Assembly: GCA_013115125.1 (NCBI GenBank) | Contig: JABANN010000039.1 | Location: 1-64,000, forward strand | Direction of reading: 5' to 3' | DNA: 64,000 nt | Source: Perkinsus olseni | Lineage: Eukaryota | Shown here: in pieces, positions 24,687 to 47,270 of the stretch | Numbering within the stretch: the first letter of the stretch is position 1 | Layout of the letters: every line of letters begins with the position of its first letter | Made by a program: the position numbers and the translations under genes | The notes under the pieces: model-generated | Database searches by the model: none | Told to the model about the DNA's origin: nothing | Seen by the model: only the letters and a program-made list of their open reading frames with translations

Positions 24687-25590
24687 ATGACCACCCTATG
24701 CGATCGCGCCGAGCTGAGACGGGCTACGAGCAGCGTCCTTCACTATGTCGCCAGCAAGATGAGGGGTATGCCCGAAGACTGCCTGTCTGAGGTATGGACT
24801 ATGGCGCACCCACAGGTCGAGGGGCTGGAGAGGGCTAGCAGGGTCTGCGTGTCCGCTCAAGAAGGGGATGGGTCTCCAGCACTCGACGGTGAGGTTTTGG
24901 ACCTGCGCACTAGGACTCATCGCCAAGACACATCAAGCGATAGTTTCTTCTGGAGACTCGATTACGAGGAAGAATCACTGAACTTGGTCTTTGCGGAGGG
25001 TCCAGGAGGTGGTGCCATTTGTGTTCGCACTACGGAGGAGTTCCTATACGTATTGAGCCGTGTGGATGGCTACTATCGCTTTCCACGGTCCCTTGGTTTC
25101 ATTCGAGAAGGATATGGTCTTTCCGAAAAACATCGCTTCTCACTGCGGCCGTGGTCTGGGGACGATCGAAGGAGGAATCATATATCCTCCGCTACCAGTT
25201 GCGTCAACGCCTGCATCTACGCGACCACAACTGACTTGGACAGAGACGGTCTCTGAGAGACCGAAGCGACATTTTGGTGGAAATCGATGTTGGACACGAT
25301 ATTGGGCGATTCAGGACCGTAGGTTGTGGGGATTTGTATTCTGTTTCAGCGGCGATGCTGATTGGTGGGGCTTCCCTATTCTGGCTGGATGGTGAGGATC
25401 CCTCTAATGCATAAAAGTGGACCCGTGGCCTTGGTGGCCTTGGCTCCAAGGACAGCTGCACCCCCTTCCTTCAGCATCATGGAGTACAGTTCACAACCCT
25501 CACCGTGAGTAACCAGGTCGCCTGGCTCGGCGTCTGGATGCTGCAACAAGAGAGGTACGTGGACCTCATCACAGAGACCAGCCTTGCCGT
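24687..25590 (+). pseudogene. Tandem family copy A (MTTL..RAELRRV family), disrupted
   Basis: Homologous to the other copies; a 14-bp insertion at 25248-25261 shifts frame, TAA at 25412-25414, 3' end truncated. Confidence 0.85.
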
Positions 25591-26595
25591 CATCATATGC
25601 CATGACTGAGGCTCAACAAGGGATGAGGGTGTTGTAGCAGCTCACACAAGAGCGTAATCTATGGTGATTCCATATCGAGCATGTTTGGGGAATCGCGCAA
25701 GACCCTTGCGGCAAGAGAGCAAGGGGATCGAGTAAAAGAGCAAGTGACCAAGGTATTGGTCAACATCCAAAGTGCGTCAGAGGCTTATGACCTCTACGCG
25801 GCGTAGACTACGCCAAGGCCACACGCGCGCTCATTGTTAGCGAGTGGTTTTGTGGATTTTCTGAGCTCGGGTCCGGATTTCCTGGAGTTCAAAGACCCTG
25901 AAAACTTTTTGAACTTGGAACTCGGAAAGCTCAACACTTCAATCGAGAAGTTGTTTTACTCGGAACCGAGTAACACGATTTCCGAGCCCGGAAAGAAGCT
26001 AGGATTTTTGAACACATCACGCGACAGTTCTAATAGAGCTCTTTAGTTAGAAGAATAAAGAAGAAACACTGTGAGGGTGATTCCGGGAGAATCTGTCCCT
26101 TGGGGACTATCAAATCTTCTCGTTCTTCTTCGGCGTGGAACCTCTGACTGAGCAGGGCATGTGTCAGGTGCCTCTTGAGGACAAGTAAGGGAACAACGCC
26201 GACCCGTCTGCCATTGCACCGGAGTGCTGGGTGTGCGAACATGCATGCACGCTCGACGAGAGTCCCTCGTGCGTTACTGCTTGGTGACTGAGCAGTCCCT
26301 CGATTACTAGGTTGAGGCCTCCGAAACTCGAGCTCAATCCGCTACTGTTGAACTCAACCAATGAGGCATGGGGATCATTCCTAGTCCATAAAATTGACTA
26401 GTATCAACGGAGGTCCTCTATCAGAGGACGGGAATAAAAAATATCGCGATGGGTACTGACACAGACTGTGGCCCACAGTACTACTATGTGGAGGGCCACA
26501 CGTAAAGTCATGGAAAGGGTCGTCCAAGAATGAAAATGATACAACGTTCGGTCAAGAATTGAAGGCATCGGTCATCGTTTAACTGATCACACATA

Positions 26596-27039
26596 TCATC
26601 TCTGAAGCTGATACAGGTCCACTCCAGTAGAGGCAGTTGGGACGTGGAGATACTGATATCCATTCTCAATATAGCAACCAGTCATGAAATACTTGTCATA
26701 ATACCCGGCCGAATCCTCCACGATTTGGTCACATGGAGGGTTCAGCGTCACGGTGAAGTCTCGTGCACCGCTGCCCTGGTTAAGTGTATATCCACAATCG
26801 TATAGGGCTTTCTTTAGATGGCCTTTATAGGGAGTTATGTACACCCTTCCGCCCTGCTGGCGAGTGAACTTGAACTGCAGGATATCTGGCTCACCAGTGG
26901 TAGAGGAATAGAAGGTGTAGGTTTTATCGACCGGAGATCCCAGTCCACCCGAAGAATCCTCATTGTCACCGCGAAATACCTCAGGGCCGCATTGAGCGAC
27001 AACGAAGATGAAGCACAGACCAGTTAGATGGAGGTACAT
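26596..27039 (-). CDS. Intronless small putative secreted protein (147 aa)
   Basis: Signal-peptide-like MYLHLTGLCFIFVVAQC; a paralogous sequence lies at 28547-28818. Confidence 0.7.
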   Translation of the reverse strand: MYLHLTGLCFIFVVAQCGPEVFRGDNEDSSGGLGSPVDKTYTFYSSTTGEPDILQFKFTRQQGGRVYITPYKGHLKKALYDCGYTLNQGSGARDFTVTLNPPCDQIVEDSAGYYDKYFMTGCYIENGYQYLHVPTASTGVDLYQLQR

Positions 27040-44917: not shown

Positions 44918-45946
44918 ATGACCACGCCTTTCGATCGCGCCGAGCTGAGACGGGTTACGAGCAGCATCCTTCATTATCTCGACAACAAGATGAGGGGTAT
45001 GCCTGAGGGCTGTCTGGTGGAAGTATGGGCGATGTCGCACCCACAGGTTGAGGGGCTCGAGAGGGCTAGCAGGCTATCTATTCCCACCGGAGACGGGTGC
45101 GTATATTCGGCTCTACAGGGTGAGATCTTGGACGTGCTTACTGTTCCCCGTAGACATCGTCATCAATTCTTCCGGATATGCGGCTATAATGATGCCTCTC
45201 CCAAGCTGCTGTTCACCGGCGATGACTGTCACTTAGTTCACACTACGCAGGCGTATACATACATTATCGGCAGAGAAGATCATCTCTACCGCATCCCAGG
45301 GTCCACCAGTTTCGTCCGAGACCTGCACGACAAGGAGTGCTTTCCATTGCGGCCGTGGTCCCCCGGTGATCGGCAGGTTCGTGGTATATTCTTCGCCACC
45401 AGTTGCGACGCCTCCTTCGTCTACGGCAAGACATGGGACAGTCTAATAGAAATCGATGTTGCGAATGATATAGGCCGCTACAGGACTATACAGTCTGGGT
45501 GGTTGCAGAATATCTCAGCGACGATTCTAAATGGGAGGTCTACCCTTTTCTGGCTGGATGGTGAGCATACCTGTAATGCATAAAAGTGGACCCGTGGCCT
45601 TGGTGGCCTTGGTGGCCCTGGCTCCAAGGACAAGTGCACTCCCTTCCTTCAGCATCATGGAGTAGAGTTCACAACCCTCACCGTGAGTAACGATGTTGGC
45701 TGGCTGAAGACCGCCTGGTCGCCTGAAGCGACGGTTTGGCAGGTGGACCTCATTTCCGAGAAGGTTCTCGCTGTGTTCGGAGAGCCAGCAGAACCTTACG
45801 ACATTCGCGCCAGACCGGATGGTGGTTTATGGGCAACTCTGGAGCCGTGCGGCGACGTGGGCTTGGTGGTGGAGGTCTGGAAGCCGGTTTTCGAGTTCAG
45901 AGCGAACTCGCAGATCATGATGCGTCCTGCCACTCCTATCACCTAA
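44918..45946 (+). pseudogene. Tandem family copy I, full length with a single in-frame TAA (45581-45583)
   Basis: The frame continues past the TAA (TAC in copies C, E and F) to ...QIMMRPATPIT*. Confidence 0.85.
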
Positions 45947-47270
45947 TGCTTACTTGAGTTTTTGTCCAATGGTTTCAGATTTCAATTGAGCCGTGTGTGT
46001 GAGTTTTAAGTCCAACGCCGAGAACCGACTTAGTCAGACTAGCACCGATGTATCTTGTTTCGAGTAGGATGAGTTAAGAAGTGTTTATTGAGCACAGAAA
46101 GTAGCGCTCAGGCAGAGGGTAGGACAGCTCTAAGATACTTTCTCTCCTCCCGGCAGGATCCGCTTCCACAGCTAGGGTGGCTGTGTACTACTGTGTACTG
46201 TGTATAATTGAGCCGTCGTGTTGTTGTATCTTTACTTGATAGTTCGTCGAGTCTCGTATGTGAGCAGTTCATTGAAGAAATACACCTTTGGATAAGCCTG
46301 CACCCGCCATGTGGCCTGGTGAAACGGACTGAAGTCGTTACATGAGATGCTAACGCAGGCTCGATTCCTAGTCTAGTTGAAGGCTGCCATACGCAACCTA
46401 CATGCAGCTGGTAGCGGCAGTCTCGCCAATGCTCCTTGCAGAAGCCTTTTTTCCTTGACGCGCCCGAACGATTCCCTTACCATATTCGCACGACGGACTC
46501 CTGGGTCTTTTGTAAATCCCGGGGATAGTGAGCCTCACTAAGTGAGTCGGTAGCAGTTCTGTGTCCCAATGAAGATTGTGGAGGGCTCAACCGGTAATTA
46601 TGTGTGTGTGAGTTAATAGTTCAACGCCGGTTCCCGCTGAGTTCGATACAAGCAGTGCGGCCGCAGTATGCTCGCGCAAGGAGTTCCTCCGCATCGTTTA
46701 ATGAGATCATGGACTCAGTGAGTGGAATCATGCCCCTGCAGGGCAGCGTGAATCACGGCCCGTGACTGATTGGATTCTTCGCTTACAGTAAGGGAGACCG
46801 AGAGCTGCTATAATTATCAAGTCACCGGGAACCCTTCAACGCCTGCTGCTATCGAATCATCCGTCGTGATCCGACTGCCGTACTCAAGCACAGTTCACAA
46901 ACCCTTCTGGGTGAGTAATGATCATGCTGAGTAACGTCAACGAAACATGCTGGGTATGCTACTGAAGCCGTTTTAGCCGCTGCTGCTGTTGACAAATCTG
47001 CTGAGTGAGCGAGATGCAGCAGTTCTGAAAATGTTGCTTAATTATCTACTTGTGTTGGAGTCACAAAGTGTTATTCCTCCGCACAGGGGGGAAATATGAA
47101 ACAACGGTATTCTAGTAATTGAAATCAATATTCAACAGCAGCTTTGCGCCACCGTTTGAAAAGAAGTATAGAAAAGTAGAAGATACGAGGGAACGATCCC
47201 GAGAGACTATAGAGGAAGCAGATCAATGTGTCGACAGCGGCTCGAGAGGAGTCACGAAAGACCGCAGAGG

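Follow-up and report, generated by a model that had tools for sequence, protein, structure and literature searches.

We analysed a 64,000-nucleotide (nt) stretch of the Perkinsus olseni genome (GenBank assembly GCA_013115125.1, contig JABANN010000039.1, positions 1 to 64,000 of the forward strand; hereafter the window) and found that it carries a stereotyped 22-nt scar, in which bases 1–7 of an 8-mer X are followed by the reverse complement of the whole of X and then by bases 2–8 of X. A mechanical scan recovered 16 perfect copies, with X differing from scar to scar, where chance alone would give about 2e-4 per 64 kb. We consider it likely that these scars were left by the excision of a DNA transposon of the cut-and-paste kind that uses hAT-type chemistry. 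Copies with 0, 1, 2 and 3 mismatches number 16, 11, 10 and 19 in the window, compared with 0, 0, 0 and 1–7 in three shuffles, confirming that the pattern is real and far above chance. An earlier note on this DNA, made from the sequence before any scan, had named eight perfect copies (at 25241, 25793, 27895, 27932, 27997, 32199, 36705 and 42628), four with one mismatch (1902, 26458, 33798 and 46526) and a weaker one at 46745. On rescanning, all eight are perfect, the four have exactly one mismatch each, and the weaker copy has three by reading of the letters. Its list was nonetheless incomplete, missing eight further perfect copies at 1254, 2248, 8456, 16339, 16608, 40023, 42031 and 43861, and the scars are not confined to 25241–46766 as it had proposed: the perfect copies spread from 1254 to 43861, so that the whole window is affected.

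The signature is tied to one length and one offset. When k was varied from 4 to 12 across the window, k = 8 yielded the 16 copies, k = 5 and k = 6 one each, and k = 7, 9, 10, 11 and 12 none, while the 14 hits at k = 4 compare with 15–22 in shuffles; the sharp peak at k = 8 that the earlier note had expected is thus present within these 64 kb. The k = 8 pattern was absent from five first-order Markov shuffles of the window, and versions with other offsets (d = 0, 2 or 3, for example with bases 1–8 or 1–6 of X in place of bases 1–7) gave no hit in the window itself. Reverse-only, complement-only and direct-triple versions, run on the real window sequence, gave none at 0–1 mismatch and 1–4 at 2–3 mismatches. 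As a further negative control, no k = 8 scar occurred in 80 unrelated metagenome loci (1,197,741 bases), which are bacterial-grade matches to a transhydrogenase fragment at 41–48% identity and served for this purpose only. These counts bear on an explanation that needs no transposon, namely replication template switching, in which 7 bases are copied, 8 more are copied from the complementary strand and synthesis then returns to the original template. Two such switches would formally yield an inverted triplication, and the window revealed no element; this route, however, offers no reason for a fixed length of 8 with a one-base offset, nor for 16 copies at k = 8 against none at k = 7 or k = 9–12. 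Template-switch and fold-back insertions at breaks share the local inverted duplication, but they vary in length (about 5–34 bp in yeast, in the accessible text of PMC11724301), whereas the scars described here are fixed in both length and offset.

Palindromic footprints derived from hairpins are a textbook feature of hAT excision. Perfect palindromes with a single central base are enriched in the window, with 44 having arms of 7 nt (3.8 expected), 12 having arms of 8 nt (1.4 expected) and 5 having arms of 9 nt (0.4 expected), in addition to one each with arms of 10, 16 and 24 nt. For palindromes whose centre has 0, 2 or 4 bases, the counts in the window are as expected, and because the enrichment is restricted to a single central base, covalent hairpin closure is favoured over polymerase snap-back. 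A two-hairpin test paired palindromes no more than 120 nt apart in which the 7 bases to the left of the first and the 7 to the right of the second overlap as one 8-mer, and it also required the two centres to be the complements of the last and first bases of that 8-mer. It returned nothing in five shuffles and 21 loci in the window, of which 16 are the annealed scars, four are clean non-annealed footprints and one (59415/59522) is weak. The complement rule for the centre bases is obeyed at both junctions in these 21 loci, and the same test with k = 5, 6, 7, 9 or 10 remained at chance in the window. The earlier note's scheme of an 8-bp duplication, a hairpin on each flank and a join through the inverted copy predicts such two-palindrome variants, and they were found, four of them clean, at k = 8 only.

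In the first non-annealed footprint, at 590..651 (X = TGTAGGAG), palindromes at 614 (arms 24) and 644 (arms 6) are joined directly, and in the second, at 2409..2448 (X = AAGATTAA), a reiterated inverted tract lies between palindromes at 2418 (arms 9) and 2441 (arms 6). The footprint at 16402..16445 (X = TTCTCAAG) has palindromes at 16409 (arms 7) and 16436 (arms 9) separated by about 10 nt of filler, which is in part a repeat of the flank tract; the one at 41825..41904 (X = CTCTCACC) has palindromes at 41834 (arms 9) and 41882 (arms 16, or 22 at 95%), between which lie about 14 nt of filler. Filler of 10–14 nt is thus present in two variants; where sequence between the palindromes repeats the adjacent tract, as in two of the four, this is the outcome that templated end joining would give. 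Searched for elsewhere in the window, the filler sequences returned only chance-level 8–10-mers, with no hint of element termini. The variants tell further against template switching: although the two palindromes are independent and have arms as long as 24 nt, they still bracket one and the same 8-bp duplicate, and a polymerase folding back could hardly produce palindromes that have a 1-nt centre and no loop. We regard that origin as very improbable.

Empty counterparts show what each scar adds. In paralogous copies within the window, the positions of three perfect scars are occupied by the plain 8-mer, with an alignment gap of exactly 14 nt: the scar at 25241..25262 (X = CAGAGACC) is empty in paralogue 33093–33329, that at 32199..32220 (X = CTCGCGTA) in paralogue 43377–43543, and that at 42628..42649 (X = AACGGAAC) in paralogue 45667–45901. 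Each scar is therefore a net insertion of 14 nt. These readings come from the three clean alignments of the five that span a scar; the other two, both of 25241, are too diverged to be read. A fourth empty site appears in sequencing data: at the position of the one-mismatch scar 43097..43118, a contig found in runs X2 and X7 carries one 8-mer in place of the 22 nt. All of these counterparts are paralogous or unassigned copies rather than proven alleles. Of the three-way comparison proposed earlier, between empty sites, scars and sites with the element still in place, the empty sites have been found, and no element-bearing site was seen.

Independent sequence data carry the same scars. The stretch is present in sequencing runs from 12 studies, four runs of which were compared over 25000–44999 as assembled short-read contigs rather than raw reads. 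Contigs from runs X1 and X2, which belong to two studies, match the window with no differences and no gaps across at least 9 of the 11 perfect scars in this interval, including 25241; the two perfect scars that no X1 or X2 piece covers among the matches listed are 25793 and 42031. Run X1 may be the source of the window itself. The diverged strain X8 covers 27691–28402 with 9 gap letters, all of them outside the perfect scars at 27895..27916 (X = TAGCCTAC), 27932..27953 (X = GGCATCAA) and 27997..28018 (X = GATGCAGC), and it therefore shares these three. Among the matches listed, X8 pieces near 33798 and 43861 contain 23 and 28 gap letters, and X8 also shows a joint at 36710; from these we claim no scar/empty polymorphism. 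Contigs of run X7 retain the scars at 25241, 42031, 42096 and 42183; the perfect one among them not yet given in full, 42031..42052 (X = CTTTCACC), lies within X7 contig 41302–42607. We take X7 to be probably RNA because it contains a GT..AG joint, which corresponds to a 100-nt intron at 43000–43099 on the + strand, its acceptor AG being bases 2–3 of scar 43097. An assembly or sequencing artefact has nothing in its favour beyond the oddity of the pattern, and against it stand the identical sequence in contigs of two studies, the three scars in a diverged strain, the graded series of mutated copies and the empty sites in paralogues; we give it almost no credence.

The proposed route from element to scar would run as follows. 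Insertion would create an 8-bp target duplication, leaving the element flanked by X on both sides. On excision, the transposase would nick each flank one base inside the duplication, and the 3'-OH of the flank would attack the opposite strand at the element end, so that a hairpin would cap each chromosome end, with the complement of the base formerly in contact with the element at its tip. Host nucleases would then open both hairpins far from the tip, producing 3' tails that carry the reverse complement of X on the left and its complement on the right. The tails would anneal through the shared reverse complement of X, and flap trimming, gap fill-in and nick sealing would complete the repair, as in microhomology- or annealing-driven end joining. 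With the left hairpin opened a nt and the right b nt from the tip, the tails would overlap within the reverse complement of X whenever a + b exceeds 8, and because the product is then independent of the nick position, the same 22-nt scar would result each time. Failure to anneal would leave the palindromic tracts joined end to end, sometimes with short filler, as at the four variant loci. A host nuclease or repair pathway acting on staggered breaks 8 bp apart, with no mobile element involved, would fit the many scars in 64 kb that holds no element and the uniform product. Hairpin closure over an unfilled 8-nt gap would, however, be expected to yield an inverted 8-mer without the flanking 7-mers, unlike the scars, and we know of no enzyme that acts on 8-bp staggered breaks in such a manner; this we hold to be improbable, if marginally less so than template switching.

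Compared with known systems, the window contains what is looked for in hAT footprints: an 8-bp duplication, hairpin palindromes with a one-base offset and empty-site counterparts. Hairpins on flanking DNA that are opened off-centre, giving palindromic additions, are also familiar from the P nucleotides of V(D)J coding joints and from the Transib/RAG reaction. RAG and Transib make a 5-bp duplication and close the hairpin without the one-base offset, unlike the scars: k = 5 is at chance here and even, loop-0 palindromes are at expectation. The hAT element Hermes makes 8-bp target duplications (PMC10368747, in the part of the article available), and hAT excision palindromes are centred on the complement of the base adjoining the element, according to the accessible portions of PMC5873905 and PMC1978519. 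The same portions describe Ac/Ds in yeast, Candida and Arabidopsis as leaving palindromic tracts of this kind, as in the window, with arms of up to 20 nt in yeast and joining by microhomology in the opened hairpins. Ac/Ds footprints are heterogeneous there, with 28 types among 128 events in Candida, whereas one product dominates here (16 annealed scars against 4 variants), and those data come from reporter assays, whereas the window holds a natural genomic fossil record.

Since no parent element was found, it is from this geometry that we infer the hAT superfamily, and the same mechanics could belong to another enzyme, such as a Mutator-like element (MULE), a superfamily yet to be described, or a hAT-like recombinase that has been domesticated and moves tiny or cargo-less elements. 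Neither a hAT element nor its transposase turned up in the window, the target preference of the scars is unlike that of Hermes, and MULEs also make flank hairpins together with 8–10-bp duplications, as the available text on Muta1 states (PMC5499845). The strict k = 8 of the scars fits one end of the MULE range, but the lack of any duplication of 9 or 10 bp speaks against the MULE version; Muta1 excision in yeast is more than 90% precise (same source and extent), whereas each event here leaves 14 extra bases; and the one-base offset is documented for hAT, while no source that we found, in the portions accessible, gives the same for MULEs. The strict 8 bp leads us to favour hAT over a Mutator-like element, and we consider another enzyme of any of these kinds unlikely, although it is a stronger contender than the explanations that dispense with a transposon.

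Several observations weigh against the hAT attribution. The search for a hAT transposase or a miniature inverted-repeat transposable element (MITE), which the earlier note had called for, came up empty: 8-bp duplications accompanied by 12-nt inverted repeats number 1 in the window (0–2 in shuffles), a relaxed scan for duplications with inverted repeats gives 2 (0–3 in shuffles), and no MITE-sized insertion differences separate seven paralogous units in the window. Of the 138 stop-to-stop open reading frames (ORFs, at least 100 aa), 70 were searched with Pfam, and none of these showed a DDE transposase domain, whether of hAT type or another; no filled orthologous site was seen in the material compared. 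Short classical hAT footprints, made of left and right tracts joined directly with a + b below 8 and, in their heterogeneity, typical for hAT excision in plants, are not enriched in the window; the few matches at a + b = 4 coincide with known scars. Their absence implies that opening near the hairpin tip and direct end joining would be rare in this organism, and the attribution requires a repair route that is unusual in being near-uniform. The target preference is a further difference. In the 41 sites that comprise scars with up to two mismatches and the four variants, symmetrised, T at position 3 or A at position 6 occurs in 36 of 82 cases (p = 5e-5), a weak preference, with positions 2 and 7 not significant; Hermes prefers nTnnnnAn (PMC10368747, as far as its accessible text goes). 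A target pattern is, on the other hand, a trait of a subfamily and not a definition of the hAT superfamily, and a 64-kb sample without a resident element is not contradictory, since scars pile up over the long term while elements move on. The earlier reading has therefore fared unevenly, with its geometry borne out by the variants and the empty sites and its hAT element, MITE or transposase missing from the window.

Two candidate elements were examined and rejected. The sole candidate from the duplication scans, at 46620–46842, looks like a chance match. A large inverted repeat (26789–27058 and 28528–28811) proved to consist of inverted paralogous gene fragments with 78–84% identity and not of transposon termini; the fragments enclose a 1.5-kb spacer that holds six scars, and contigs of runs X1 and X2 join 26750 to 28815 on opposite strands, which may mean that both orientations of the spacer exist or that the assembly graph is ambiguous. 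What Pfam did recognise in the ORFs searched were a retroviral-type integrase relic (rve/Integrase_H2C2) at 1–453 and 2698–3513 on the - strand, methylenetetrahydrofolate reductase at 22369–23879 on the + strand and transhydrogenase at 49298–51719 on the - strand, and nothing else.

The pattern scan places the remaining perfect scars, to which, as to all scars and variants, no strand is assigned, at 1254..1275 (X = CCAGACCA), 2248..2269 (X = GCTCTGAG), 8456..8477 (X = CTCAAAGG), 16339..16360 (X = GCCGGTGT), 16608..16629 (X = ACACCCTG) and 25793..25814 (X = TCTACGCC); those at 36705..36726 (X = GCGCCACT) and 43861..43882 (X = GACATAGG) are documented by the scan and by run contigs, and that at 40023..40044 (X = CGCAAAGG) sits at the low-coordinate end of the probable RNA contig 40043–41096. 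Besides 43097..43118, copies with one mismatch lie at 1758..1779, 1902..1923, 26458..26479, 28412..28433, 32434..32455, 33798..33819, 42183..42204, 46526..46547, 55470..55491 and 56708..56729, and copies with two mismatches at 1118..1139, 1291..1312, 6937..6958, 15961..15982, 25696..25717, 26249..26270, 27732..27753, 28058..28079, 42096..42117 and 59408..59429. Two scars are compound, spanning 1902–1935, where an extra reverse complement of X follows the unit, and 16339–16369, where an extra near-copy of X follows it, as if one site had been struck a second time or synthesis had been reiterated. Insertions of 14 nt relative to paralogues at 31042–31055 and 44850–44863 do not fit the scar pattern at up to three mismatches and may be older, decayed scars or unrelated indels.

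Placement was assessed on the same set of 41. None lies inside the two conserved genes, in keeping with the earlier note, and 8 of the 41 fall in the integrase relic, part of a decayed retroelement at 1–3513 on the - strand (rve and Integrase_H2C2 fragments), which is consistent with accumulation in neutral DNA. The scars are clustered, with a median nearest-neighbour distance of 206 nt where random placement gives 545 nt (P = 0.0025), and two clusters, 27732–28412 and 41834–42628, lie directly upstream of putative leader-addition sites. Open frames at scars are shorter than at random sites (median 85 against 124 aa). When 14 nt were removed in silico, none of 27 scars gained an ORF extension of at least 50 aa, against 5.7% of random-site controls; the absence of gain gives no sign of scars lying within live coding sequence or being removed from transcripts, and the frameshifting mutator effect on genes that had been suggested was not seen, with no longer reading frame broken at any of the 27.

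Mismatches per scar run from 0 to 3 or more, so the process would have been long-running, spread over non-conserved, often promoter-proximal DNA in clusters. The ages form a continuous spread, and a rate that stayed roughly constant over time predicts the near-equal classes with 0, 1, 2 and 3 mismatches; assuming neutrality and such a rate, a rough estimate is about one scar per 220 substitutions. A more specific scenario, which we consider unlikely, is that the scars stem not from an ordinary transposon family but from a hAT-like system, host-retained (domesticated) or carrying very small cargo, that inserts and excises repeatedly in open, promoter-proximal perkinsid chromatin. Coupled to a hairpin repair without tip opening or classical end joining, such a system would be a deterministic +14-bp mutator, with about one event for every 200 point substitutions.

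The interval 24630–46000 contains about seven dispersed or tandem paralogous units on the + strand, of roughly 1–1.4 kb with 68–81% identity and ORFs of 150–250 aa; none matches a Pfam family at the gathering score, and they may represent a lineage-specific gene family. A run of about 12 G at 35795–35806 occurs in a single unit. Segments 40043–41096 (- strand) and 26440–27049 are very deep in the probable RNA run X7, with word depths of about 2000 and 6800. The loose ends of RNA contigs at 27049 and 41096 resemble the tail of the perkinsid/dinoflagellate spliced leader, and the contig end at 40043, which adjoins scar 40023–40044, carries adaptor-like letters. The transhydrogenase fragment is closest to Perkinsus olseni proteins (65% identity) and then to those of other alveolates. 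Together with the leader-like ends, this similarity places the DNA in an alveolate close to Perkinsus. Within the transhydrogenase gene the PNTB domain is encoded upstream of AlaDh_PNT_N, in beta-then-alpha order, and the ORF pieces imply introns or frame changes. Rfam places tRNA genes at 10506–10585, 12774–12855 and 53451–53522; genes of this class are the reported targets of Dada transposons in Perkinsus marinus (PMC3706591).

Hairpin footprints themselves are known. In the literature we found no account of a single dominant annealed product, of such a uniform scar present at about one per kb as a datable genomic record, of either in this lineage, or of hAT traffic in Perkinsus, and a prior record in reporter assays is possible. 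Excisions are normally invisible in genomes because the footprints are short and heterogeneous, whereas a 22-nt signature is specific enough for each event to be found, dated by decay and mapped. If the hAT interpretation is true, cut-and-paste traffic would become countable, and target preference and chromatin bias measurable, in a lineage of alveolate parasites that has seen little work on its mobile elements and repair pathways. Sequence alone would also reveal how hairpin-capped breaks are repaired, by opening far from the tip and then annealing. With about 57 events in 64 kb, this process would add insertions on a substantial scale.

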